DNA from: Candidatus Micrarchaeota archaeon
GTDB lineage: Archaea; Micrarchaeota; Micrarchaeia; Micrarchaeales; CABMGC01
DNA length: 64,000 nt
Direction of reading: 5' to 3'
Assembly: GCA_021801225.1 (NCBI GenBank)
Contig: JAJYYF010000012.1
Coordinates: 58,656-122,655, forward strand
Shown here: positions 5,604 through 55,651 of the stretch, one piece after another
Position numbering within the stretch: the stretch's first letter is position 1
How the letters are laid out: each line of letters opens with the position of its first letter
The notes under the pieces: model-generated
What the model saw: only the letters and a program-made list of their open reading frames with translations
Databases searched by the model: none
Told to the model about the DNA's origin: nothing
Position numbers and translations under genes: made by a program

Positions 5604-6209
5604 GTGATATTTGTGCCACGTAAAAGAGTAAATAGAAGAAAAAATTTATTCAAAAGATTAGAGTTTGGAAGTAAAGGAAAAGCACTTGAAACCTTCCTTT
5701 TAACTGAAATATTAATAATTTTAGTAGTTGGTATAGTAGGTTACTTCAGATTTCCAGTTTATATTCCTGTGCATTACTTTAATGGCATACCTAACGCATA
5801 TGGCCAAAGTATCTTCTTTCCCTTAACTGCTGTAATATTATCCATAGCGCCAATAATTGTGCTTCTAATCTCGAAGTTCAGATATACTCTTCTCAATAAA
5901 TATCCTTACTTCATTAATATGCCTGTTTTTTATTACTCAGAGATAAGTAGATTTAAAAGAGAAAAAAGAAGTTACTGGGTTAACAAATACTTTGAACTTG
6001 TTTTAGGAATAGGAGCATCAATAGGCGGTTTAATGTTAATCACAATATTTGACATATATGAAGGAACAGTAAATTACTTCTTCCCACCAAATATATCTAT
6101 TTTAATGATAATCTGGATCTTAGGTACAATATTGTTCCTATATATTTACTTGAAAAATTTATATAAACAAATAATCACTAATAAAGCAAAAAGTACTAAA
6201 TCAAAATAA
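5604..6209 (+). CDS. integral membrane protein, DUF1648-like
   Basis: 201 aa with a GTG start and about 4 TM helices. The IPVHYFNGIPNAYGQS motif resembles DUF1648/SdpI-type N-termini. Confidence 0.45.
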   Translation: MIFVPRKRVNRRKNLFKRLEFGSKGKALETFLLTEILIILVVGIVGYFRFPVYIPVHYFNGIPNAYGQSIFFPLTAVILSIAPIIVLLISKFRYTLLNKYPYFINMPVFYYSEISRFKREKRSYWVNKYFELVLGIGASIGGLMLITIFDIYEGTVNYFFPPNISILMIIWILGTILFLYIYLKNLYKQIITNKAKSTKSK

Positions 6210-6222
6210 ATAGGTCAAACTA

Positions 6223-6630
6223 ATGTCATTCATAAGTGAGTTCAAAGCATTCATGACAAAAGGCAATGTAATTGATCTTGCAGTTGCTGTAGTGATAGGC
6301 ACTGCGTTCAATGCTGTAATAACAGCTCTCGTAAATGATATAATAACTCCGTTAATCGGAGTTGCCGGAAATATTAATTTTGCTGGGATAACTTATACTG
6401 TTAATAATAGTACATTTCTAGTTGGTACATTTCTTAACGCAATAATAAGTTTTTTTACTATAGCTTTGGTAATATTTTTATTGTTAATAAAACCTGCAGA
6501 AAAGCTAAAAGAGAGATCAGCAAAGAACAAACCATTACCTATTGTTGATACTAAAGTATGTCCAGAATGTTTATCAACAATACCTCTGAAAGCAACTCGT
6601 TGCGCATTTTGTACATCTAAAGTAAAATAA
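6223..6630 (+). CDS. mscL: large-conductance mechanosensitive channel MscL with C-terminal CxxC...CxxC zinc-ribbon tail
   Basis: FKAFMTKGNVIDLAVAVVIGTAFNAVITALVNDIITPLIG is the MscL TM1 signature. A second TM follows, and the C-terminus reads CPECLSTIPLKATRCAFCTS. Confidence 0.85.
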   Translation: MSFISEFKAFMTKGNVIDLAVAVVIGTAFNAVITALVNDIITPLIGVAGNINFAGITYTVNNSTFLVGTFLNAIISFFTIALVIFLLLIKPAEKLKERSAKNKPLPIVDTKVCPECLSTIPLKATRCAFCTSKVK

Positions 6631-6631
6631 T

Positions 6632-7156
6632 CTATTTTATAAATTTTTTAAACTCTTTTTTAATTTTTTCAACCTTTGGCGTTATAACATAACTGCAATA
6701 TGGTTGTTCTTTGTTTTTAGAGTAGTATTTTTTATGATATTCTTCAGCAGGATAAAATTCATCCAGCTTTTTTACCTCAGTTACAATTTTTTTATCAAAT
6801 ATTCTCTGCTTTTGTTCTATAAACATCTCAATTTCTTTCTTCTGAACCTCATCATAATAATAAATTGCAGATCTATATTGAGTGCCTGCATCCGCTCCTT
6901 GTTTGTTTAGTGATGTTGGATCGTGCATCTCAAAAAATGCCTCTAAAAGGGTATTTAATGACAACTCTCGTTCTTCATACTCTATCATTAGAACTTCAGC
7001 ATGTCCTGTACCGTCATTGCAAACTTCTTCATAACTTGGGTTAGGTTTAATACCTCCTGCATATCCTGGAATTGTATTTTTTACACCTTTTAAAATATTG
7101 AAAACTGCTTCTGTACACCAAAAACAACCTCCTCCAAAAACAATTTTTTTAATCAT
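6632..7156 (-). CDS. msrA: peptide-methionine (S)-S-oxide reductase MsrA
   Basis: Has the GGGCFWCTEAVF active-site motif. 174 aa. Confidence 0.9.
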   Translation of the reverse strand: MIKKIVFGGGCFWCTEAVFNILKGVKNTIPGYAGGIKPNPSYEEVCNDGTGHAEVLMIEYEERELSLNTLLEAFFEMHDPTSLNKQGADAGTQYRSAIYYYDEVQKKEIEMFIEQKQRIFDKKIVTEVKKLDEFYPAEEYHKKYYSKNKEQPYCSYVITPKVEKIKKEFKKFIK

Positions 7157-9225: not shown

Positions 9226-9389
9226 TTATTTTAACATAAACTAACGTTGTTTAAATTTAAAACTGTGTTTTTAAAATAATTAGAGAAAAACTGCTATTTT
9301 TGAGTAATATCCAATCAACTTCTCATTTAATCAGCACTAGATAACTTTGATTGTAATTTATAATATACTAATTAATGAAAAAGTATCAT

Positions 9390-12300
9390 TTATTCTGAAT
9401 TGTCATTATCATCAATATCTGTTTTATAATCAGTTTCAGATTCTGAAATCTCTGTTTCTTCATCAGTGTTTTTGTAAGAATCATTATTGTTATCGTCTTC
9501 TGTTTTATAATCATACTCTTTATCTTTAACTTCTTCTTCTGATTGTAAATTTTCTTTATTATTCTCAGATATGCCTTTATTGGTTTTTACATCTTCATTA
9601 TCTACTTTTTTGTTAATGTTGAACTGTGTTTCATTGTTTTCTTTATCAGAAATTTCCTCATCACTCAACCATGTCTCATTATCTTTTTTATAAATCTTTT
9701 TATTTTTAATATCTTTTGAATAAACATTGAAAGTTTTTCTACCCTCTACTATTCTATACAACAAATAAATAATAGCTAATAATATAATTACGGTTATTAT
9801 AACTAAAATATTTCCGAATATTGTTTTTAAATTACTACTTGAACTACTGCTTGAATTTACAATAACTGTTGCATTACCTTTTTGCGTTATAGTTGTAAAC
9901 ACATTTTTAATTGTTGTAACTACTGTGGTTGTATTTTTAGATGTTGTATTCTCAAAAATTCCTATTATCGGATCTTTAGGTATGAAAACTGTTATTATAC
10001 AACGATTTGCATTTATTGAATAATTACTTAATTGTACCCATGTATTATTTTCAAAGATGTACGGCTTTATTCTATTATCAGAAATATTACATTGATAAGA
10101 CATATTTGTACTTACTATTAATGAACTTGAATTACTTTTTACAGTTAAGTTAAATATTGTTATTAATTTTTGATATCCTTTTGGTGTAGTATAATTTATT
10201 TTTGGAGTACTTACACTTACAGTTGCCTTAGTATTTGTTTTTGAGGATAGAACTATGTTTATTGATTTATAAATACTTCCTGTCTGGTAAATCGTTATTG
10301 GTGATTTAGCACTCAAATTAAAAGTAGAATTAAATGAATTCGCATTTGTTATTGAGAAGTTCTTTCCAGAGTTTTGTATTACTGTAAAGTTACTTGTTGA
10401 GATTTTTGTTTTATTTATTATATTAGGTATTCCTGTACTTGTATTCTTTGTACTATTTTGTAATTTTGTTGAATTTAAGTTATTTTTAGTGTATTCAAAG
10501 AACTTTATTGCTACTGTTTGTTGTAATGGTATATATGAAACATTGTAAAGTTGCATACTACATGTACTATTTCCTAATACCTCTATTGGTTGAGAATTTA
10601 AGTACAGTGTATATGGTATGTTATTTAAGGTGATTCCACTTGAATCTGGACTTATAAAGTTTAAGGTACTAAAAACGCTTTCTCCACAGAAATTAAATGT
10701 AAATGTTGCAGGAACTCCAAAATTAGTTACTAAATAACCGTAACTTGTACCTACTACTGTTGGATGTGGTAGTCCTCCTCCTCCAGCTCCTCCACCGCCT
10801 CCGCCACCTCCTCCACCACTTATCTGCTGTGTTGTTGTAGTTGAGGTAATTTGTTGTGTTCCTTGACCTCCAACTCCTATGGCCCAATTATTATCCGTAC
10901 TTATTCCTTGTAATGTTTCAGGAAGTTTTAGCCAAATACTTACATTATCAACTTCGTTAAGATTATTATACTGACTTTCGTTAGAAGCATTTCCTTGAAT
11001 CCATGTTGGAGAAGTAATTCCGGATGTTTTATTATACAAATAGATATTTTGAAGATTTGGAGATAAGTATGTTGAATAATTTAATGAATTAAATGATATC
11101 ATTAAATCTGATCCGCTACTCATGACAGCTGTTTGATTATTTTCAATGCTTATTGGTATGCAATACTCAGTTTCAGATTTTAATGTGTTTGGTATATTTC
11201 CACAAACATTATTCCCTGAATCATAAATTTTACCTGTTTTAACACTTGGCATTAAACCGTTTGGAGGATATGTTGCTACCCCTATAAAGTTCAATGTATA
11301 ATATTTAAACGAACTTTTATCATTTGATGTCAATATATCTATTGTATAGATTTTTTGATCCGCTCCAGCGGCATCGGAATATAAGTATACACTACCGTTT
11401 TTTACGTTTTCTGAAGGTCCACAGTAACCTCCTGTATGCAACCAACACCATATTACCGTTCCAGGTCCATTAACATTTTTAACATATGATACTATTATCC
11501 CATTATTGGGGGATGTTACTGGTGATGGAATTCCTTCATATTGATATAAACAGTATGATGTATTTACATTGAATCCATTATTAATTGCTATTCCATCTGG
11601 ACACGTTTGTAATATAGACGACCAAATACTACTTAATGTAGTTCCACTAAAGTTATCATAAAGACTAAAAACTTCCTTTCCATTGTCATATTCTCCATAC
11701 GTGCTTGTTAATTGCGGTGCAATTCCAATATTTGCATTTGAGTTTTGAAAGAAATTATTTAAATTAGAGGTAACTGTTTGAATTGTTGTAGTTGTCGGAT
11801 TTAGAATTTTTCCTATTGTTGTAGTAGGAATCGATGTCGATGTACTTGTTGATGTGCTTGTAGACGTTGTACTCTGAGTAGTCGGTACTGTTGTTAATAC
11901 AGTACTTGATGTTGATGTACTCGTACTTGTCGATGTTGTACTTTTAGTAGTCGGTACTGTTGTTAATACAGTACTTGATGTTGATGTACTTGTAGATGTT
12001 GTACTCTGAGTAGTCGGTACTGTTGTTAATACTGTAGTAGATGTTGATGTACTAGTACTTGTTGATGTACTTGTACTAGACGTACTTGGTGAGTTATAAT
12101 TTACTAAGACGGTGGGTGAATACTGAACTGGCCCATATATTACTTGTCCTGCTTGTTGACCGTATCCGTATTCTTGAACATAAAAACAGTAATAAGAGGT
12201 ACTTGTTGGTATTACGTTATAACTATAACTATATGTTCCAATACCTAGATCTGCTTTTCTGAAACCTTCGTCTGAGTAATTGCTATCCTGTGAACAAGAA

Positions 12301-13844
12301 CTATATGGTCCTGTTCTTAATGAAATCAAATAACTGACACGTGTTTGATTTACATAGTATACTGTTTCATTATATAATCTCAAAGTAACAGTTAAATTTT
12401 CATTAGGTCTTACATCATATGTTGAAACATTTGTCTTTAATGTTGCTAATATAGGCTGTGTGGCATTGAATGTAAATACATGTGCTTTAGGATCTCCTAT
12501 AATCACACTTTTCCATTCTAAACATGGCATTGCTGCATAAAATGCATCTCCTAATGTAAGTCCACCATAATATGCTGGAAGAAGTATATCAGGTACTTCT
12601 AAGCAAGCAGTAAAAGGTTCACTGACATACCCACTAACCCCCGTTATATTATCTAAAACCAAATCAGATATTAATGACTGTCCACCTGTCCAAGGATACT
12701 GTAAAAGGGTTCTTGCACTAGAAGAAACAAATGTTTCGCCTATCGCTCCCGGAACAAACCCATAATCCCATTTACTTGAGTTTTGACCATTATTACAACC
12801 ACAATTTGAACCCCAAGAATAGTAACCACTCAAACCCTTATTTCCTATTGGAAATGTATCTGTTATGTAAGTAGAATTTATTTGCATTTCTTGTAAAATA
12901 ATGTTAGCACTATACATCTGAGTTTCTAAAGTTGTACCTTGATATGTTGCACTTGTTGTATTACCTATTAATAATACATAACCCTTGTTATAAGCTGTTT
13001 TAGCATTTGATGCATCATTTATTAAATTATAAATGCTTTGTTGTGTAGGCCCATCTAATCTTGTAACTATATACATTCCTTTATAACTTGAATTTGAGTT
13101 GTTGAACACATTTTGCTCTAATATATACTCATTTATTGGATAGACTAGTCTTGATGCCAATCCATAAAAAGTATCATAATAAGGATTACTAACATCTCCA
13201 TAACACGTGCCACATAAATCACTCGGATCGTTTGTAAGGTTATCTGCAATTAATGAATCTATTGAAACTCCAATTCCTATATATGGGTTTGTATATGCAT
13301 TATCATCAAGAGGGACACCTACAGTCGTTACTATATACTGAATATTTGGAGTAACAGCTAATTTATTTTTTATTTGAAGTAATATTGAGTTTGTTACTGT
13401 GTTATTAACATATTCGGAATTTGGTATGTTACTTAAATTGAGTACATGTGATGTATTAAATCCCTCACTTATTCTTGCATTTTTAAAGTAATTACAAACG
13501 TTTTCACTCTCTTGACTTGCCGGGTTGCAAATAAGTAAAACATCATAATATGAATAGTATTTAGAATCAAATGATTGCAATTGAGCTTCAGTTTCAGCTT
13601 GTTTCTGTACTTTTAGTATTTTATTAGTTGTATTTGTATTTTTTGTAATATTTGTATTGTTTAAAATATTTTTATTTACTGCTGTTATAATTATGTTTGT
13701 ATTATTACTATTATTATTTATTGATTTATTTAAATTATAAATATACGGTATCAGAATAATTCCAATTAAAAAAACAAGTAAGATTTTGTTCAAAAACATT
13801 GTTTTTTGTTTATTTTGTTTTCTTTTAGAAAAACTCCTAACCAT
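9390..13844 (-). CDS. giant mosaic cell-surface protein (1,484 aa): N-terminal signal/anchor, S/T stalks, lectin-like and DUF2341-like modules, Gly linker, C-terminal TM helix plus ~120-aa acidic tail
   Basis: One uninterrupted ORF. The hydrophobic N-terminus is MFLNKILLVFLIGIILIPYIY (the real start may be this Met, at 13799). N-x-S/T sequons are very dense. Modules are shared with the proteins at 34748 and 41681. A TM helix ILVIITVIILLAIIYLLY is followed by a D/E/K/N-rich tail. Confidence 0.85.
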   Translation of the reverse strand: MVRSFSKRKQNKQKTMFLNKILLVFLIGIILIPYIYNLNKSINNNSNNTNIIITAVNKNILNNTNITKNTNTTNKILKVQKQAETEAQLQSFDSKYYSYYDVLLICNPASQESENVCNYFKNARISEGFNTSHVLNLSNIPNSEYVNNTVTNSILLQIKNKLAVTPNIQYIVTTVGVPLDDNAYTNPYIGIGVSIDSLIADNLTNDPSDLCGTCYGDVSNPYYDTFYGLASRLVYPINEYILEQNVFNNSNSSYKGMYIVTRLDGPTQQSIYNLINDASNAKTAYNKGYVLLIGNTTSATYQGTTLETQMYSANIILQEMQINSTYITDTFPIGNKGLSGYYSWGSNCGCNNGQNSSKWDYGFVPGAIGETFVSSSARTLLQYPWTGGQSLISDLVLDNITGVSGYVSEPFTACLEVPDILLPAYYGGLTLGDAFYAAMPCLEWKSVIIGDPKAHVFTFNATQPILATLKTNVSTYDVRPNENLTVTLRLYNETVYYVNQTRVSYLISLRTGPYSSCSQDSNYSDEGFRKADLGIGTYSYSYNVIPTSTSYYCFYVQEYGYGQQAGQVIYGPVQYSPTVLVNYNSPSTSSTSTSTSTSTSTSTTVLTTVPTTQSTTSTSTSTSSTVLTTVPTTKSTTSTSTSTSTSSTVLTTVPTTQSTTSTSTSTSTSTSIPTTTIGKILNPTTTTIQTVTSNLNNFFQNSNANIGIAPQLTSTYGEYDNGKEVFSLYDNFSGTTLSSIWSSILQTCPDGIAINNGFNVNTSYCLYQYEGIPSPVTSPNNGIIVSYVKNVNGPGTVIWCWLHTGGYCGPSENVKNGSVYLYSDAAGADQKIYTIDILTSNDKSSFKYYTLNFIGVATYPPNGLMPSVKTGKIYDSGNNVCGNIPNTLKSETEYCIPISIENNQTAVMSSGSDLMISFNSLNYSTYLSPNLQNIYLYNKTSGITSPTWIQGNASNESQYNNLNEVDNVSIWLKLPETLQGISTDNNWAIGVGGQGTQQITSTTTTQQISGGGGGGGGGGAGGGGLPHPTVVGTSYGYLVTNFGVPATFTFNFCGESVFSTLNFISPDSSGITLNNIPYTLYLNSQPIEVLGNSTCSMQLYNVSYIPLQQTVAIKFFEYTKNNLNSTKLQNSTKNTSTGIPNIINKTKISTSNFTVIQNSGKNFSITNANSFNSTFNLSAKSPITIYQTGSIYKSINIVLSSKTNTKATVSVSTPKINYTTPKGYQKLITIFNLTVKSNSSSLIVSTNMSYQCNISDNRIKPYIFENNTWVQLSNYSINANRCIITVFIPKDPIIGIFENTTSKNTTTVVTTIKNVFTTITQKGNATVIVNSSSSSSSNLKTIFGNILVIITVIILLAIIYLLYRIVEGRKTFNVYSKDIKNKKIYKKDNETWLSDEEISDKENNETQFNINKKVDNEDVKTNKGISENNKENLQSEEEVKDKEYDYKTEDDNNNDSYKNTDEETEISESETDYKTDIDDNDNSE
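11866..12075 (-). repeat. in-frame tandem repeat (periods 69 and 63 nt, about 3 copies) encoding the S/T-rich stalk TVLTTVPTTQSTTSTSTSTS
   Basis: The core AGTAGTCGGTACTGTTGTTAATA recurs at 11877, 11946 and 12009. Flanking sequence is nearly identical between copies. Confidence 0.85.
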
Positions 13845-13993
13845 TTTTTCATTCCTATTTTAGTAATATTCTACTTATTTGGTTATAAATATCTATACCT
13901 TGTGCTTAATTACTACCTATAATTTATTTTTAGCATTTATTCCATATAGCAGAATACCTACGATTATTGATATAATAACACTTAATGTAATTA

Positions 13994-14143
13994 TTATTGA
14001 GTAAGACTTTGAGTTATTAAACCTTTATTTAAAGCTATAACTGCGATTGCAATTCCAGGTAGATTTAATTGTTCAAATATTTCACCAGAAATTATTGCTG
14101 CTGTTAAAATTATTAATATGTCAAGTATTATCCCATATGTCAT
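13994..14143 (-). pseudogene. possible remnant of a cation/proton antiporter N-terminus (49-codon fragment)
   Basis: Own translation: MTYGIILDILIILTAAIISGEIFEQLNLPGIAIAVIALNKGLITQSLTQ**. It resembles the first TM helices of Kef/NhaP-type antiporters. A further TM-like segment (IITLSVIISIIVGILLYGINAKNKL) continues in another frame just downstream, suggesting frameshift decay. It sits in a 575-bp otherwise non-coding gap. Confidence 0.3.
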
Positions 14144-14419
14144 AAGGCTTCATTAGTAAATTAATTTAATAGTATATAAAACTTTTGAAGATTATTTAAA
14201 TAACATAAAGTAGCTCAGCATTCTTTACCGTTTAGATTGCACTTCTATGGCATTAGAAAAAAGCTATTGCATTTAAGAAATATAAAAAATAAATTCAAAT
14301 TGGACATTACAATTTTGTTTTCATTAATTTTTTCAAAAAATTTACTGGACTCTGCGATAGTCAGCCTTTAAGTGATGTGGCGAAAGTATATTGTTATATA
14401 TACAAAAATATACGCAAAT

Positions 14420-14815
14420 CTACTGCTGCCAACTACGTTCTACCAGATCAAATAGGTTGCCATACAGGTCTTCAAACACCACCTCCTTGCCCCATTGAAC
14501 TGCCTGTGGTGCTCCATGGAACTTGACGCCACCTTCCTTCATCTTCTTGTAGTCCCTCTCGATATTGTCTGTGTCAATCGTAATCAACACATGTCCTGGA
14601 GCCTGCTTGCCTATAGCTGCTTTCTTAGCGGGCGTATCCGCCTTTACAAATACAATCAGAGTTTCATTGCTCTTTTTAGGTGCCACTGATATCCATCGCA
14701 TATCAGGTCCAAATGCGTTATCAGCCAGCTTAACAAAGCCGAGCTTTTCGGTATAGAAGTTTGCAGCTTCATCATAGTCTTTAACAAGTATGCTGAAATG
14801 TCCAATTTTCATCAT
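14420..14815 (-). CDS. VOC-family (glyoxalase/bleomycin-resistance/dioxygenase fold) protein
   Basis: MMKIGHFSILVKDYDEAANFYTEKLGFVK...VVFEDLYGNLFDLVE is a typical single VOC module. The ORF-track start (14839) is a GTG, and I prefer the ATG at 14815 or 14812. The gene is visibly GC-richer than all of its neighbours. Confidence 0.8.
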   Translation of the reverse strand: MMKIGHFSILVKDYDEAANFYTEKLGFVKLADNAFGPDMRWISVAPKKSNETLIVFVKADTPAKKAAIGKQAPGHVLITIDTDNIERDYKKMKEGGVKFHGAPQAVQWGKEVVFEDLYGNLFDLVERSWQQ

Positions 14816-14915
14816 AGTATTACCTAACTTACTAGGCACTTAAAATATAAAAGACATACAGCAAGTATGAATCCCAGTGGGGGACTCACACTCTTAGTCG
14901 ACAAAAAGACAAGAG

Positions 14916-15027
14916 TGGACTCTGCGGGATTCGCACCCGCGACCTTTCCGTTTTCCGATTTTGATAAAACTTTTTTTAAAAAAAGTTTTTATGCGAACGG
15001 AACGCTCTGCTCCTGAGCTAAGAGCCC
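14916..15027 (-). tRNA. tRNA-Ala (anticodon CGC) with a 40-nt intron after position 37
   Basis: Acceptor GGGCTCT/AGAGTCC carries the Ala identity pair G3:U70 and discriminator A. D arm is GCTC...GAGC. Anticodon stem TTCCG/CGGAA encloses TTCGCA + 40 nt + A. T arm is GCGGG-TGCGAAT-CCCGC. The intron maps to 14952..14991. Confidence 0.75.
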
Positions 15028-15061
15028 ATGTTAAGATAATTAGTTTCTTAAAATATAAAGA

Positions 15062-16417
15062 TTAATGTTTTTGTACACTTGTTAAAATTTTATACTCATC
15101 TTCACTGTTACAAAACATTTTCATGAATTTTTCCTTATAAAAAGTTTTGTCAAGATACTCAGTTGCACTTCTTGTATACTTTAACGCTTCTTTTAAACAA
15201 GAACTAGCTCCTGGAGAGGGTGCCATAGAAAACTCAATGCCTTCTCCTCTCAAATCTACGACGCCTAATATTAATCGTCTCATTTTTTTATCTATTATCT
15301 GAGGCCTTATTCCGCCACCTTCTTTATAAAATTTTATATCATTATATTTTAAACTTGGGATTATTTTATTTACTTCTTCTTTAAGAAAATAATATTTTCC
15401 CAAATCCGGTATAGAATAAATAAAGTTCTTTTCAACTATTTTTTGTATATCCTTATCCTCTGATATATTAATTAAACTCTCAACAGTTTCTTTGTCAAGA
15501 CCCATTGCCTTTATGTACTTATAAGTTGACATCACATTAGTGTGTTCTAAAAATGGGACTATATTTACAGTTGGCCCATATCTTGTTATTTTCTTATTTG
15601 CAATATCAGCATCAGCATGTACCGCTGCAAAAGGTATCCCTCCTTTTTGAACTCTGTAAACCTTTCCTTTAATTACATTTCTAGAATAATAAAAATTACC
15701 TGCTACTGAAAGCATAGATAAATCCTTTCCATAACCTAATTTTTTTGCAAAGTATAAGCCATATCCTCCAGCAGCAAAAACAACAAATTTTCCTTTATAT
15801 GTTGATTTTTCAGTCCTTACAAAATAAAAACCATTTTTCCTTTCAATATCTATTGCTTCTTCTTTTAATCTCAATTTTATATTTTTCTTATTTTTTAAAG
15901 CAGACTCAACAAATGAAGTTGATAATAAACCAAAGTTTACTATATGTCCCTCTTTAGAATAAGCCGCAATTATCTCTTCATTAGGGCTTCTTCCCTTAAT
16001 TATATTCGGTTCAACTTTTAATATCTCCTTAGATTTTATAACTTTAATACTTGGGAAAAGAGAGATAAACTTTTCATCGTACCTTTTTATTATATTTTCT
16101 ACTTCTTCATTACCTACCCCAAGAACCATTTTCTGTACTTGCTTTATTAAATTATCTTTTTTAATTTTTTGTGTATACTTCAAAATTAGATGAGAAGCAG
16201 TTCTAGTTTCTATTATTTTTTCTGTATTATAATTTGTTTCAATATCTCCTACATGTAATGTTTGACTATTACTTTGACTATCAGAAGAACCCTCTCCTAT
16301 TTTTCTCTTTTCTATTAATAATATGTTTTTAATATCTGTAAACTCAGAAAGCATGTATAACAATGATGTACCTATGACTCCCCCTCCTACAATTATTACA
16401 TCATATTCATTTTCCAT
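15062..16417 (-). CDS. mqo: FAD-dependent malate:quinone oxidoreductase-like protein
   Basis: 451 aa with the N-terminal dinucleotide fold YDVIIVGGGVIGTSLLYML. SNSQTLHVGDIETNY resembles the Mqo NNAGTGHSALCELNYT region. An L-2-hydroxyglutarate oxidase-type enzyme is the alternative. Confidence 0.55.
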   Translation of the reverse strand: MENEYDVIIVGGGVIGTSLLYMLSEFTDIKNILLIEKRKIGEGSSDSQSNSQTLHVGDIETNYNTEKIIETRTASHLILKYTQKIKKDNLIKQVQKMVLGVGNEEVENIIKRYDEKFISLFPSIKVIKSKEILKVEPNIIKGRSPNEEIIAAYSKEGHIVNFGLLSTSFVESALKNKKNIKLRLKEEAIDIERKNGFYFVRTEKSTYKGKFVVFAAGGYGLYFAKKLGYGKDLSMLSVAGNFYYSRNVIKGKVYRVQKGGIPFAAVHADADIANKKITRYGPTVNIVPFLEHTNVMSTYKYIKAMGLDKETVESLINISEDKDIQKIVEKNFIYSIPDLGKYYFLKEEVNKIIPSLKYNDIKFYKEGGGIRPQIIDKKMRRLILGVVDLRGEGIEFSMAPSPGASSCLKEALKYTRSATEYLDKTFYKEKFMKMFCNSEDEYKILTSVQKH

Positions 16418-24360: not shown

Positions 24361-24619
24361 ACCACTTTAATTTAATCATTAAAATATAAATATTGGAAGC
24401 AATTGTTAGTATATCAAAAGTACCTACGAGCAGTTTTTATTTCTTTACTTTTAATAGGTATATGATTAAAAATGATACTTGAAAACTCCACCTCATTTAC
24501 GAATGAGATGAAAATTAACTGGGCATATAAGGTATTGAAATGAAGCATATTACGCATAACATTAACTCAACTCCATTGATCCAAGGAAGTTCACACCTTT
24601 TATGTGTGAGATGATCTAT

Positions 24620-26005
24620 ATGTCAAACGAAACTGTTATAAATAAAATTTTAAATCATGTCTTGAAGGAGATAAAACCCTCTGATAAAGAGTACAAAGAC
24701 ACAATACTTAAAATAAACTTGATTATATCCTCTTTAAAAGAAATTGTTCCAAAAGACGTCGAGATAAAGGTTACCGGATCAGTTTCAAGAGGAACAAATT
24801 TAAAAGGCAACTCAGACATAGATATCTTCTTACTTTTTAAAACAGGTACCACAAAAGATTATTTAGAAAAGATGGGTTTAAAATATGGCAAGGCTCTTGT
24901 AAAAAATAAATCCGATTCATATAGTATAAAATATGCTGAACATCCTTATGTGAGGGTTTTTCTAAAGTCTTTAAATATAAAAGCTGATATAGTTCCAGCA
25001 TTAAAAATTGAGAACGCAGAACAACTTGCTACAGCTGTAGACAGAACACCTTTGCATACAATTTTCATAAATGAAAAATTAAATGAAAAACAAAAAGATC
25101 AAGTACGTTTGTTAAAGTACTTTTTAAAAAATCACTCCTTATATGGTGCTGAAACAAAAACTTCTGGTTTTTCCGGTTACCTGTGCGAGGTGCTTATCTA
25201 TCATTTTGGCACCTTCTTAAATGTACTGAGGTGGAGTTCTAATTTATCTAATAATGTAGTAATCCTTCTTAATAATAAAGAAGACGATAAAGCAACATTG
25301 AGTGAAAATGAGCTGATCAAAAAATTTAATTCTGAGTTTATAGTTGTAGATCCAATTGATAAAAATAGAAATGTTGCTGCTGTTCTATCAAAAGAATCAA
25401 TCTCACGTTTCATAGTAGTTTCAAGAAAATTTCTAGAAGCACCATCTTTGGATTACTTCTATGGTCTTAAATATTCAAATGCAAAATTGAAAAATTACTT
25501 GAAAACATTTATTGAAAAAAGTGGTTTGGATATCTTTTCTCTAACTGTAAATCTTCCTGACAAAAGCGAGGAGATACTTTGGCCGCAGCTTAAAAAATCT
25601 TCTACAATAATAGAGGAGCATTTAAAGAAAAATGAGTTTGACATTTATCTTTCATTACAATTCATATCAGATAAAAAAGGGGTCATTGTACTTCTAGCTC
25701 CAAAACAAGAGAAGAGAACCAGAATGTTTAAGGGACCTGGTGTTATCAATAAAAAAGGAACTGAACAGTTTATGTCGTCTCATTCAAAAACACTTGGTTT
25801 TACATTTTTAGATTCGCGAATCTATTCGTTAGACTATGTATATTATAAAAATATTTCAGAAGCATTGAGCTCAATAAAAAAGAATAGACAACTATACTTT
25901 CACAAAGACATTAATTTATCTAATATAAAAATATCAAAAAACAAGTTTTCTAGTAAAATTACCAATGAGATAGCTTACGAGTTAATGAAAAAATTTTACA
26001 TTTAA
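24620..26005 (+). CDS. cca: archaeal class-I CCA-adding enzyme (tRNA nucleotidyltransferase)
   Basis: Has GSVSRGTNLKGNSDIDIFLLF (the pol-beta NTase G[SG]...D.D motif), AEHPYV and RTPLHT. Start candidates are 24602, 24611 and 24620, and I prefer MSNETVINKIL at 24620. Confidence 0.85.
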   Translation: MSNETVINKILNHVLKEIKPSDKEYKDTILKINLIISSLKEIVPKDVEIKVTGSVSRGTNLKGNSDIDIFLLFKTGTTKDYLEKMGLKYGKALVKNKSDSYSIKYAEHPYVRVFLKSLNIKADIVPALKIENAEQLATAVDRTPLHTIFINEKLNEKQKDQVRLLKYFLKNHSLYGAETKTSGFSGYLCEVLIYHFGTFLNVLRWSSNLSNNVVILLNNKEDDKATLSENELIKKFNSEFIVVDPIDKNRNVAAVLSKESISRFIVVSRKFLEAPSLDYFYGLKYSNAKLKNYLKTFIEKSGLDIFSLTVNLPDKSEEILWPQLKKSSTIIEEHLKKNEFDIYLSLQFISDKKGVIVLLAPKQEKRTRMFKGPGVINKKGTEQFMSSHSKTLGFTFLDSRIYSLDYVYYKNISEALSSIKKNRQLYFHKDINLSNIKISKNKFSSKITNEIAYELMKKFYI

Positions 26006-53004: not shown

Positions 53005-53934
53005 CTAAAATGCGTCAAGTATGTCCTTTAAACCATTATTTACGTCTTGATCAAGTGTAATTAAAAAGTCTTCTTTCAGAAGTTTTTCAGTTCTATTATC
53101 TCTAATTAACTTTTTAAGAAAAGAATCAAGTACACTATAATACATATGAATCTTCTGAGTAACTCTTCCTGATTCATGTTTTAAAGTTCTAAGTTGTTTT
53201 ATAACTATCCTTCTGTTATCTTTAAATTTTTCTTTCTCTATCTTTAAATCAACAATACTTCCGTCATTTAAGAATACATCTGGGGTAATTTCAGAATTGT
53301 CTTTTAGTTTTTTAGAAGGCAGGGGTACATATATTTCTGCAAAGTTTGGAACTTCTCCATTACATGAGTTTACTAACTCCTCTCTTTGTAAATCTCCACA
53401 AAATACCATAAAATAATTTCTTCCGGAGATACAGTTGCTCCATTTTACAAGTTTCCTCTTTACATTACTTTTCCTTCTATCTGGATCTTTGACAGTAATC
53501 CTTTCTAACTCTAAAGCATGATATTCTACTACAGTTAACTTATTGTCTGTCATTAAATTAGTTACAAAATCTGGGAATATCACATCCCAATTTTTATTTT
53601 CATCTTGTTTAAATAATTTAAAATTTTCCCAACTAAAAGAAATTCCATTATTTACTAAAACCAATGCTGTTGTAATTTCAGGAGTCGAAACTATTCTTGA
53701 ACGTTCCTTTTTATATGTATTAATTCTAACCAAATCTTCAAAATTTTCTACATATGTATCTTTAATATGTCTTACTACTGCATCTACTGTTCTTCCCCTT
53801 CCGTTTGATCTTACTATAACTGCAAGTTCAGCAGGGGTAACATTTAGATAAGATTGTACTAATTTAGGATCGTTTTTTCTTGCCAATAATCCACTATAAG
53901 GTCTTAATTTAAGGGTTTGGGTAACTCTGTCCAT
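53005..53934 (-). CDS. hypothetical protein (309 aa), divergently paired with a HerA/FtsK-like ATPase
   Basis: Clean ORF with no family recognised. There is a weak PD...E-x-(K/H)-like stretch (FPDFV...VVEYHALE). Confidence 0.5.
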   Translation of the reverse strand: MDRVTQTLKLRPYSGLLARKNDPKLVQSYLNVTPAELAVIVRSNGRGRTVDAVVRHIKDTYVENFEDLVRINTYKKERSRIVSTPEITTALVLVNNGISFSWENFKLFKQDENKNWDVIFPDFVTNLMTDNKLTVVEYHALELERITVKDPDRRKSNVKRKLVKWSNCISGRNYFMVFCGDLQREELVNSCNGEVPNFAEIYVPLPSKKLKDNSEITPDVFLNDGSIVDLKIEKEKFKDNRRIVIKQLRTLKHESGRVTQKIHMYYSVLDSFLKKLIRDNRTEKLLKEDFLITLDQDVNNGLKDILDAF

Positions 53935-54052: not shown

Positions 54053-55651
54053 ATGGAATTAAGTATTTCAGAAAATGTCAATGTTCAATTACAATCAATT
54101 ATGACTGGAAGGGGCTGTATAATAGGTCAAAGTGGCTCTGGAAAGTCATTTTTAATGGGCATTGTAGCTGAAGGTATAGGAAGTAAAAGGCTTCCGTTCT
54201 GTATAATCGATACTGAAGGAGAATATGCATCATTAAAATCATCAATTCCTTATGTTTTAGTTGTTGGTGGGGAAAGTTCAGATATATCATTAGATGTTGA
54301 TCTGCAGGATCTATTTACAAAATCTATACTTGACTCAATACCTATAGTATTAGATGTTTCAGAAGTTGTTAAAAAACAAGATTATGTTTATAAAGCATTA
54401 AGCACTCTCTATAAAGTTGAAGAAAAACTTAGAAAACCCTTTCTTGTTCTAATAGAAGAAGCCGATAAGTTCGCTCCACAAGTAGTCCATCAAAATATTA
54501 ACATAATAGAAGAGCTCAGCGTTCGTGGTAGAAAGCGAGGCATAGGTCTACTTATAGCTACACAACGACCTAGTAATATAAGCAAAAATGTATTGTCTCA
54601 ATGTTCATATGGGTTTATTGGAAAACTTACTATTGAAAATGATTTAAACGCAATAAGCCAACTTTTTAGTAGCAGATCTTATCTTGATGAAATAGTTAAT
54701 TTAAAAACTGGGGAGTTCATGCCTTTTGGCATAGAATTCAAGGAAAAATTCAGGGTAAAACCCAGGACCTCTTTTCATATGGGCTCTACGCCTCAAATAA
54801 ATGAGGATCAGCTTAATACAACTGTAGAACTTAACTCTATAATTAATGAATTAAATAATAAAAAAGTAATAAACAAATCAAATTTATCACAACAAGAATC
54901 TAAAGAAACAAAAACTAAATCTGAAAGTTCTAAATTAAAAAATATAACTTCAAAAATATTCTCATCAAATATCTCTGAAGATTCAGCAAGAGTTTTCGCT
55001 GAAAAATCAGCCCATAAAATTTTTGGTTTATTTGGTAAAAAAATAGAAAATGTCAGTGATATATCTATTAAATATCTTCCAGTAACATTATGTGATATTA
55101 GAATACCTACTATGAAAAAAAGAGAGTTTGAAGTTTATCAAATACCTCTTACAAAAGATGGAAATCTTATAAAAATATCTAATAAAATTACAGTTATTAA
55201 AACAAACTTAAATTACAAAAAGTTAACCTCTTCTGAGGAAAAACTTCTTTACTTAATAAAACTAGCAAAATCTATCAAAAAATCAGATTTATTTAAAAAT
55301 CAGGATTTTAAACCAAGCACAATTACTCCATCAATACGTGGATTAATATCAAAAAATCTAATCACTATAAAAAATGATAAGTTATACTCAAAAACATTCT
55401 ATGATTTTAACCTTAAAACAAAACTTTCAATAGAGACTACCAACATCCCTGAAAATAAATTGAGTGATTTATTTCTAAAACAAAATGAAATTGAATTATA
55501 TCTAAAAACATTATTCCCCTGTTCTATTTTGGATAATATTTCAGAGGTTTATCTACCATTTTATGAAATAACATTAAAGCATAAAAATAAAATAAGAGTT
55601 TTTAAGGTAGACTCAATTTTTGGAAAAGAAATTCTTCAAAAATCCTTATAA
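54053..55651 (+). CDS. HerA/FtsK-superfamily (DUF87-type) P-loop ATPase with ~270-aa C-terminal extension containing a winged-helix-like segment
   Basis: Walker A is IIGQSGSGKSFLMG, followed by CIIDTEGEYASL. Walker B is FLVLIEEADKFAP, followed by GRKRGIGLLIATQRPSNISKNVLSQC. The C-terminal LTSSEEKLLYLIKLAKSIKKSDL...ITPSIRGLISKNLITIKNDKLY looks MarR/wHTH-like. Confidence 0.7.
   Translation: MELSISENVNVQLQSIMTGRGCIIGQSGSGKSFLMGIVAEGIGSKRLPFCIIDTEGEYASLKSSIPYVLVVGGESSDISLDVDLQDLFTKSILDSIPIVLDVSEVVKKQDYVYKALSTLYKVEEKLRKPFLVLIEEADKFAPQVVHQNINIIEELSVRGRKRGIGLLIATQRPSNISKNVLSQCSYGFIGKLTIENDLNAISQLFSSRSYLDEIVNLKTGEFMPFGIEFKEKFRVKPRTSFHMGSTPQINEDQLNTTVELNSIINELNNKKVINKSNLSQQESKETKTKSESSKLKNITSKIFSSNISEDSARVFAEKSAHKIFGLFGKKIENVSDISIKYLPVTLCDIRIPTMKKREFEVYQIPLTKDGNLIKISNKITVIKTNLNYKKLTSSEEKLLYLIKLAKSIKKSDLFKNQDFKPSTITPSIRGLISKNLITIKNDKLYSKTFYDFNLKTKLSIETTNIPENKLSDLFLKQNEIELYLKTLFPCSILDNISEVYLPFYEITLKHKNKIRVFKVDSIFGKEILQKSL

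Follow-up and report, generated by a model that had tools for sequence, protein, structure and literature searches.

We analysed a 64,000-nt stretch of contig JAJYYF010000012.1 (assembly GCA_021801225.1, Candidatus Micrarchaeota archaeon), referred to here as the window, with respect to a short gene-bearing segment that adjoins the 3′ end of a tRNA-Ala(CGC) gene. Read along the minus strand, the locus consists of a malate:quinone oxidoreductase (Mqo) gene, the tRNA gene, a single gene for a protein of the vicinal oxygen chelate (VOC) superfamily, a second copy of the tRNA's terminal nucleotides, a GC-poor spacer and a long gene for a surface-type protein (Table 1). The original prediction had read the VOC gene and its surroundings as a decayed islet left by integration into the tRNA 3′ end. 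The Mqo product of the window is 90% identical to that of a Candidatus Micrarchaeota archaeon metagenome-assembled genome (MAG; MAS3.bin57) and 76% identical to a Candidatus Parvarchaeum sp. protein, and its relatives were found at 59–100% identity; by this flanking gene, the organism belongs to the uncultured acidophilic DPANN archaea. The order tRNA, VOC gene, repeat is found in five independent assemblies from four sources (an NCBI MAG, a JGI metagenome, an ENA assembly and two Logan assemblies), and an assembly chimera is thereby excluded.

Table 1. Features of the tRNA-Ala locus in window coordinates (position 1 is the first letter of the 64,000-nt window).
Feature	Position	Strand	Basis
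Surface-type protein gene, 1484 aa, conserved flank	9390..13844	-	
Variable spacer between repeat copy 2 and the surface-protein gene, 501 bp, 23% GC	13845..14345	-	
Repeat copy 2 (candidate attR core), CGCAGAGTCCA	14346..14356	-	
Right-end arm (putative P arm), CGCCACATCACTTAAAGGCTGACTAT, directly upstream of repeat copy 2	14357..14382	-	Match to L073 junction arms
VOC gene (glyoxalase/bleomycin-resistance/dioxygenase superfamily), intact, single-domain, 131 aa	14420..14815	-	Pfam PF00903, 3.8e-19
TATA-like box, TTTATATTTTAA, ~30 nt upstream of the VOC start	14840..14851	-	Read from sequence; function inferred
Cassette left end, two adjacent hairpins straight after the tRNA end	14868..14915	-	DNA fold
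Repeat copy 1 (candidate attL core), the tRNA's last 11 nt, CGCAGAGTCCA	14916..14926	-	
tRNA-Ala(CGC), target gene	14916..15027	-	Rfam RF00005, 49.4 bits, E 1.4e-7
tRNA-Ala exon 2	14916..14951	-	Split read from sequence
tRNA-Ala intron, 40 nt	14952..14991	-	Split read from sequence
tRNA-Ala exon 1	14992..15027	-	Split read from sequence
Mqo gene, conserved flank and anchor for orthologous loci	15062..16417	-	Pfam Mqo

The tRNA-Ala gene is intact: it has the G3:U70 pair, does not encode the CCA and, as read directly from the sequence, carries its intron at the canonical 37/38 position. ARAGORN missed this intron-containing gene, which the Rfam covariance model alone detected as the third tRNA of the window; tRNA counts for such genomes that come from ARAGORN alone could omit intron-bearing genes of this kind. 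The VOC segment adjoins the gene directly, the tRNA ending at 14916 and the segment beginning at 14915. The terminal 11-mer (TGGACTCTGCG on the plus strand, CGCAGAGTCCA on the minus strand) occurs in 64 kb as two exact copies, beginning at 14346 and 14916 and in direct orientation, so that the repeat predicted beyond the VOC gene is indeed there. No further copy was found in the window when one mismatch was permitted, and the expectation from base composition is 2.7e-5 copies per kb on the same strand; the 11-mer is thus not one that recurs frequently by chance. The repeat is exactly 11 nt long, since the 45 nt upstream of copy 2 show no significant similarity to the tRNA that would mark a degenerate extension, and additional degenerate copies were not found as far as the next gene. 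Searches for 3′-end repeats of the window's other two tRNAs and for other RNA families in 13700–15100 were likewise negative.

The two copies enclose 559 bp (14357..14915), the whole unit measuring 570 bp. The hairpins at its left end fold with a DNA z-score of −4.1 that none of 200 shuffles equalled, and the first stem is predicted to include the last two bases of the tRNA (14916–14917) as well. The VOC start codon follows 100 nt downstream of the tRNA end, and besides the VOC gene the 559 bp hold no usable open reading frame (ORF). The VOC product matches PF00903 (Glyoxalase) over residues 3–123 and profile positions 1–120 of 121, which is the full paired beta-alpha-beta-beta-beta domain. 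VOC chains in the PDB match it down to 2.3e-14, the closest being uncharacterised structural-genomics proteins. The protein is unchanged across every assembly that carries the gene and is presumably expressed and functional.

In composition the VOC gene stands apart from its surroundings, as had been judged by eye. Its computed GC content of 0.447 compares with a mean of 0.306 (sd 0.029) and a maximum of 0.376 among the 49 other ORFs of the window, and its GC content at third codon positions (GC3) of 0.470 with a mean of 0.207 (sd 0.032) and a maximum of 0.268 (z = 8.1). This GC3 was reached by none of 1266 in-frame 132-codon windows of host sequence, whose maximum was 0.341, and codon choice also falls far outside the host range (AAG 73% vs. 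23%; CTG 50% vs. 3%). The best homologues outside the window's species are only 66–69% identical and lie in unrelated genomes, on contigs of archaeal-looking (~40% GC) as well as bacterial-looking character; other near homologues include one beside an AraC-type regulator and one in a 60% GC contig. The homologue search thus agrees with the predicted foreign origin, but a bacterial donor was not singled out. Two of the best homologues are found on ~40% GC contigs with Ta1207-family genes, from an ENA study that also contains the species of the window and that of MAS3.bin57, and VOC genes in these contigs have window-like GC3 values (0.45–0.47). In one such contig (L030), the VOC gene forms an 800-bp unit flanked by 182-nt direct repeats, which combine the region upstream of tRNA-Leu(TAA) with the 5′ part of that gene and occur at 5680–5861, 6480–6661 and 9347–9528. 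Fragments of PIN/MazE, Fic and transposase genes lie near this unit. A neighbour-joining tree of 120 homologues did not resolve the donor, the window protein grouping among unnamed sequences; with the donor left open by the tree and the neighbour contexts mixed, transfer from a host to its symbiont is not something that we claim. A foreign origin of the gene is nevertheless well supported by its composition, codon usage and homologues.

The orthologous locus in the closest available relative, L003 (MAS3.bin57), shows what can stand in place of the VOC gene. The alignment of L003 with the window runs at 81–84% identity from 26.5 kb down to 14915, stopping exactly at the tRNA 3′ end. It picks up again ~30 nt ahead of the start codon of the surface-protein gene and continues through that gene at 73–76%. 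The intervening 2.5 kb of L003 are unrelated to the window and lack the VOC gene; they contain a hairpin, an RHH_12 antitoxin gene, a PIN_2 toxin gene, a copy of the tRNA end over 23 nt (two mismatches in all, none in the last 13 nt), a PhnB-like gene with a frameshift and a gene of 251 aa. GC3 is 0.42 and 0.36 in the RHH_12 and PIN_2 genes vs. 0.16 in the host, and host-like in the 251-aa gene. By its sequence, L003 holds another cassette bounded as in the window. In the comparison with a relative, as had been suggested, the VOC gene is thus absent and the L003 insert starts exactly at the tRNA end, but different cargo was found there instead of an empty site. The orthologous locus is differently occupied in L003, its strains and L049; in a 76% relative an MmeI-like methyltransferase gene follows the tRNA, and in a 66% relative tRNA-Ala is not present at this position. 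For the 82% relatives, contigs stop 126–332 nt after the Mqo stop codon, and several contigs of the window's species end at or just after the tRNA, which is expected assembler behaviour where populations are heterogeneous.

Within the species of the window, the second repeat itself marks a boundary. A conspecific locus, L037, whose Mqo is 100% identical, agrees with the window over the tRNA, the VOC gene and repeat copy 2, which there reads CGCgGAGTCCA, and departs from it with the base directly after the repeat. The L037 sequence continues with a hairpin, TAAAACTTCTTGGGAAGAAGTTTTATCAAGAAG, that is 96% identical over 26 nt to the sequence after tRNA-Ala in L009, an organism of 49% GC. A comparable break is seen in a 47% GC species, three strains of which (L077, L082 and L083; 99.4–99.5% mutually identical) diverge inside a partial tRNA-Ala copy that follows an operon of RHH and PIN genes. 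Taken together, composition, the uniqueness of the repeat, the occupancy of the site in L003 and the L037 breakpoint support the geometry that had been proposed, namely that of attL and attR attachment (att) sites after integration into a tRNA 3′ end.

Similar arrangements follow tRNA-Ala in other lineages. A metagenome scan with the 23-nt tRNA end returned 19 loci. In the unrelated L008 and L015, a second copy of the last 11–13 nt lies 64 and 66 bp away, respectively; in L010, a 27-nt partial copy and a 12-nt copy 1.44 kb later enclose a DUF4258/DUF2283 pair and one unknown gene; L011 and L020 have orphan partial copies. In a 44% GC organism, an RHH/PIN operon like that of L003 stands directly after tRNA-Ala(TGC) and is followed by a 52-nt partial tRNA-Ala copy of the CGC type; the two operons align over promoter and coding regions at about 85% by eye, part of the left flank being weaker. 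Four lineages have homologous RHH/PIN operons a short distance upstream of a tRNA-Ala end copy, at least five lineages besides that of the window have a second copy of the tRNA end at tRNA-Ala, and every cassette seen at the site in five lineages is small (0.06–2.9 kb) and lacks an integrase. As a separate observation, the 53–55-nt inserts of L008 (630–693) and L015 (307–372), which end in a copy of the tRNA's last 12–13 nt, fold as long imperfect hairpins whose 3′ strand is the tRNA copy (DNA z = −4.2); the tRNA and insert of L015 are within a 16S–23S spacer, and these inserts may be solo att scars or minihelix-like processing signals.

The most elaborate arrangement was met in a 42% GC species (L072–L076), which was reached via look-ups of PIN_2 homologues. 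In L072 and L074, an intact tRNA-Ala ending in CGCCGAGTCCA is followed by one unit, which is not the first unit of L073. From position 1039 on, L073 and L072 are 99.9% identical; upstream of this point L073 is arranged differently, and it has four tandem units in total: site (186), RHH/PIN, site (1011), two small ORFs, site (~1840), Fic plus RHH/PIN, and site (~4020). Two of the L073 sites consist of an arm of ~26 nt, GCAACCATCACTTRAAGACTGCNTAT, the core and a downstream arm. The right-end arm of the window matches these two junction arms in register at 18 of 26 positions, a value reached by those two alone among 14,796 L073 positions (null mean 6.6). The core follows each host's own tRNA-Ala, with A vs. 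C at core position 4 in the window and the L073 species, so that the combined arm-core motif reads CAYCACTTRAAGRCTGNNTAT-CGCMGAGTCCA. An arm placed after the VOC gene, with the other end at the tRNA, fits recombination between a circle and the tRNA end; a dispersed intergenic repeat would not give this split. Thus, the tRNA-Ala end is, as read from these sequences, a hotspot at which related DPANN archaea hold other small cassettes, singly or in tandem, and at which strains differ at repeat boundaries.

The original prediction also held that no integrase remains, and this was confirmed: none was found in the 559 bp, the records for the ~4 kb to either side list no integrase family, and Pfam placed none of ten unannotated ORFs of the window in a recombinase family, the remaining ORFs being judged by eye to be housekeeping genes. 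Likewise, precomputed Pfam lists hold no integrase family within 3.5–6 kb of any of the sites and arrays. A split integrase of the SSV type was considered and rejected, because the ORFs that cross the two repeats do not, by eye, join into a reading frame. The islet thus keeps both att sites without recombination or transfer genes, and is a non-autonomous unit or a remnant rather than an autonomous element. Whether it should be called decayed is another matter. It is indeed integrase-less and att-flanked, but its cargo gene is intact and has a TATA-like box, and small integrase-less units may be the norm at this site.

We therefore consider it probable that the 559 bp of the window are a small non-autonomous integrative cassette, carrying a foreign and intact VOC gene of the detoxification type, at a tRNA-Ala hotspot of acidophilic DPANN archaea. 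In the mechanism that we envisage, the cassette would have entered as a circle, and a cassette-borne site composed of right arm, core and left arm would have recombined site-specifically with the last 11 nt of tRNA-Ala(CGC), rebuilding the 3′ end of the tRNA and duplicating the 11-nt core. By analogy with other tRNA-targeting elements, the enzyme would most likely be a tyrosine recombinase, which may act in trans or may have been lost from the cassette. This scheme predicts an empty-site junction in which GAATCCCGCAGAGTCCA is joined to GTAAATTTTTTG (in longer form, GTGCGAATCCCGCAGAGTCCA to GTAAATTTTTTGAAAAAATT), and a circle junction that reads GGCTGACTAT, CGCAGAGTCCA and CTCTTGTC in succession (in longer form, CTTAAAGGCTGACTAT, CGCAGAGTCCA and CTCTTGTCTTTTTGTC). 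The crossover would have to fall within or next to these 11–13 nt, because it is there that exact identity stops in the window, L003, L008, L010 and L015, because the core of copy 2 matches each host's own tRNA, and because strains diverge straight after the core. A cassette that is non-autonomous by nature is favoured because all units are small and integrase-less, RHH/PIN operons precede a tRNA-Ala end copy in four lineages, and the arm is conserved across species.

Several points weigh against this interpretation. No empty site was found among the loci of relatives, so that the ancestral empty state is inferred, and neither a circular junction nor a recombinase was found. Queries of IMG/VR with four DNA patterns and two proteins gave only chance 15-mers and no virus or plasmid with the site or the cargo. 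Mobilisation in trans would follow from parsimony (many small units, none with an integrase) and not from an observed event. At 11 nt, the repeat is much shorter than the 23–52-nt partial tRNA copies at other loci. A profile of arm plus core, run over all fetched loci, recovered only the species on which it was trained, so that right-arm homology links two species, and the likeness of the left end of the VOC cassette to L073 cassettes is not significant (p 0.04–0.35).

A bolder version of the cassette interpretation is possible, although we hold it only tentatively: acidophilic DPANN archaea (Micrarchaeota and Parvarchaeum-like) might have an integron-like platform for gene capture whose primary attachment site is the 3′ end of tRNA-Ala, with cassettes moved by an unlinked recombinase. 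Small promoter-bearing cassettes might then be inserted, stacked and exchanged, each bearing a short arm-plus-core site in imitation of the tRNA end. The cargo met so far includes VOC, RHH/PIN, DUF4258/DUF2283 and Fic genes, and exchange might reach across co-occurring species of 31–47% GC.

The principal rival, which we judge unlikely though deserving of serious weight, is that an integrase-bearing virus, plasmid or island once occupied tRNA-Ala and that deletions left the VOC gene between two att sites, the result being a cis-mobilizable element (CIME) produced by decay. This is the decayed islet of the original prediction, taken strictly. The absence of an integrase is what such a history would leave behind, decay of this kind is the standard bacterial route to integrase-less att-flanked elements (PMC5704250), tRNA-linked islands of Prochlorococcus contain such remnants (10.1101/2020.12.28.424599), and the partial tRNA copies seen elsewhere are long (23–52 nt), like classical attP sites. 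However, no frame of the 559 bp contains an integrase fragment, and the ORFs that cross the repeats stop within a few codons. The small size and lack of an integrase in all cassettes of five lineages also tell against it; moreover, independent decay would need to have spared the same RHH/PIN operon in four lineages, and the right-end arm is still conserved across species.

A much less probable history is the replacement of a whole allelic island, in which the DNA from tRNA-Ala to the surface-protein gene was swapped by homologous recombination through the flanks, the 11-nt repeat being an unrelated older scar. It would account for the fact that this entire interval differs between the window and L003, beyond the repeats too, and it is compatible with strain L002, in which cassette and spacer are ~99% identical to the window and the adjacent surface-protein gene 94.4%, as after a recent sweep or transfer. 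Yet it leaves unexplained why breakpoints fall exactly at the core in L037 and in L077, L082 and L083, why a tRNA-end repeat bounds the cassette, and why a conserved arm abuts the core in another species with other flanks.

We give very little credence to a classical integron array, in which IntI would have captured attC-bearing cassettes. Toxin-antitoxin and VOC genes are typical integron cassette cargo. The cassettes are co-oriented, with one to three genes each, and integrase-less arrays (CALINs, clusters of attC sites lacking integron-integrases) are common in archaeal MAGs (PMC9668308). An intI-like gene is nonetheless not on record within 3.5–6 kb of any array, the junction units do not surpass shuffled sequences in folding (z −1.6, −0.2, +0.25 and −0.25) and form no attC-like hairpin, the first site is a tRNA gene end with a core of tRNA sequence rather than GTTRRRY, and the VOC cassette has a TATA-like box of its own. 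Equally slight is the prospect that a chance 11-mer lies beside a vertically inherited gene of odd composition, or that the locus is an assembly or binning chimera; the repeat is short and the host sequences are metagenome-assembled, but chance would supply so few copies, the arrangement recurs across the NCBI, JGI, ENA and two Logan assemblies, L003 has no VOC gene at the locus, and second copies of the tRNA end recur in the other lineages.

Beyond repeat copy 2, the spacer is 99.4% identical in strain L002 and not homologous to the corresponding region of L003. Its first 30 nt are predicted to fold as an A/T hairpin, which could be either the native tRNA trailer or a decayed form of the L037 hairpin, and the spacer as a whole may be a native trailer or the remnant of an older cassette. 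The 40-nt intron of tRNA-Ala resembles the hairpins that follow the tRNA end or the repeat in relatives (L003, 11499–11530; L009, L037 and L073, after the core), all sharing the frame AAAAC-stem-loop-stem-GTTTTATCA(A/G)(A/G)AA, for which an A/T-rich coincidence and a common origin are both possible. A frameshifted antiporter-like fragment had been reported at 13994–14143 and taken as a sign of a degraded island. The 49-aa ORF exists and is kept between strains, but its identity as an antiporter could not be verified: it has no transporter match in Pfam (E up to 10), in the PDB or by phmmer against 1.84 billion representatives, and no frameshifted continuation was seen in other frames. The N-termini of two DPANN Na_H_Exchanger proteins gave a weak BLASTP match (30% over 43 aa, E ~1e-3 in a search space of two sequences). 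In the 42% GC species, the cassette array is bounded at its far end by a complete Na_H_Exchanger gene (L072, 4106–5311; also L073–L076), and the 49-aa ORF has a weak likeness to the N-terminus of such proteins, but on the opposite relative strand.

Some features of the wider surroundings may be added. The surface-type protein, which matches no Pfam family, contains long Ser/Thr repeats and ~10 consecutive glycines; its gene evolves much faster than its surroundings (94.4% vs. ~99% between strains) and contains the local GC peak at 10600–10999, which is therefore not a second island. A gene for the CCA-adding enzyme lies closely upstream of tRNA-Ala in L072 (1–107) and in L077, L079, L081 and L083 (1–692), the last four being most strains of the 47% GC species; in the window this gene (24602–26005) is ~10 kb from tRNA-Ala. 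At 53005–53934 of the window, a 309-aa ORF without a Pfam match is divergent from a neighbouring gene for a HerA-like (DUF87) ATPase (54053–55651) and is recognisable neither as a recombinase nor as NurA.

Among known systems, archaeal elements of the SSV and pNOB8 types, found in Sulfolobales and others, integrate into tRNA genes and are usually flanked by a repeat of roughly 40–60 nt. The cassette resembles them in its insertion at the 3′ part of a tRNA that stays intact, in the direct repeat of tRNA sequence, in foreign composition and in strain variation, and differs in having no integrase or split int(N)/int(C), a repeat of 11 nt, one gene, a length of 0.57 kb and a DPANN host. CIMEs, known from streptococcal ICE (integrative and conjugative element) and IME (integrative and mobilizable element) systems, keep attL and attR without integration or transfer genes, and their tandem accretion gives attP-like internal junctions (PMC5704250); the L073 array has this structure, and the L037 sequence after the second repeat is compatible with it. 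However, CIMEs are bacterial, usually several kb long and defined by reference to an ICE or IME that is known and supplies the mobilising integrase, whereas the tRNA-Ala units range from ~0.06 to 3 kb and have no known autonomous partner or integrase.

The tycheposon-shaped islands of Prochlorococcus share with the tRNA-Ala cassettes a streamlined genome, specific tRNA anchors, partial tRNA copies between tandem elements and niche or defence cargo, but tycheposons encode a tyrosine or serine recombinase specific to the lineage, often together with replication genes, and nothing of the kind was seen at the tRNA-Ala cassettes (10.1101/2020.12.28.424599). Integrons and CALINs are alike in that small co-oriented cassettes are separated by recombination sites of ~40–100 nt (PMC9668308), and differ through IntI, attC-type folding and attachment elsewhere than at the end of tRNA-Ala, as well as through the TATA-like box of the VOC cassette. 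Horizontal transfer is thought to drive genome expansion in DPANN archaea, in a paper that names no integration sites or mobile elements (PMC12892359), and in the literature we found no such islets or integration sites described for Micrarchaeota, Parvarchaeales or DPANN archaea.

Taken alone, the locus is a tRNA-linked islet, a feature of an ordinary kind whose host is unusual, and the evidence for a shared tRNA-Ala hotspot adds moderate interest. If the cassettes are merely decayed remnants, they represent ordinary, well-documented tRNA-linked islands in a new lineage. For DPANN archaea, which have very small genomes and depend on hosts, the last 11–13 nt of tRNA-Ala are a sequence-defined entry point through which accessory genes have demonstrably been gained and swapped between strains and species. 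Should the recombinase be found, the site could offer genetic tools a landing pad in Micrarchaeota co-cultures and would permit direct tests of gene flow in acid-mine communities.

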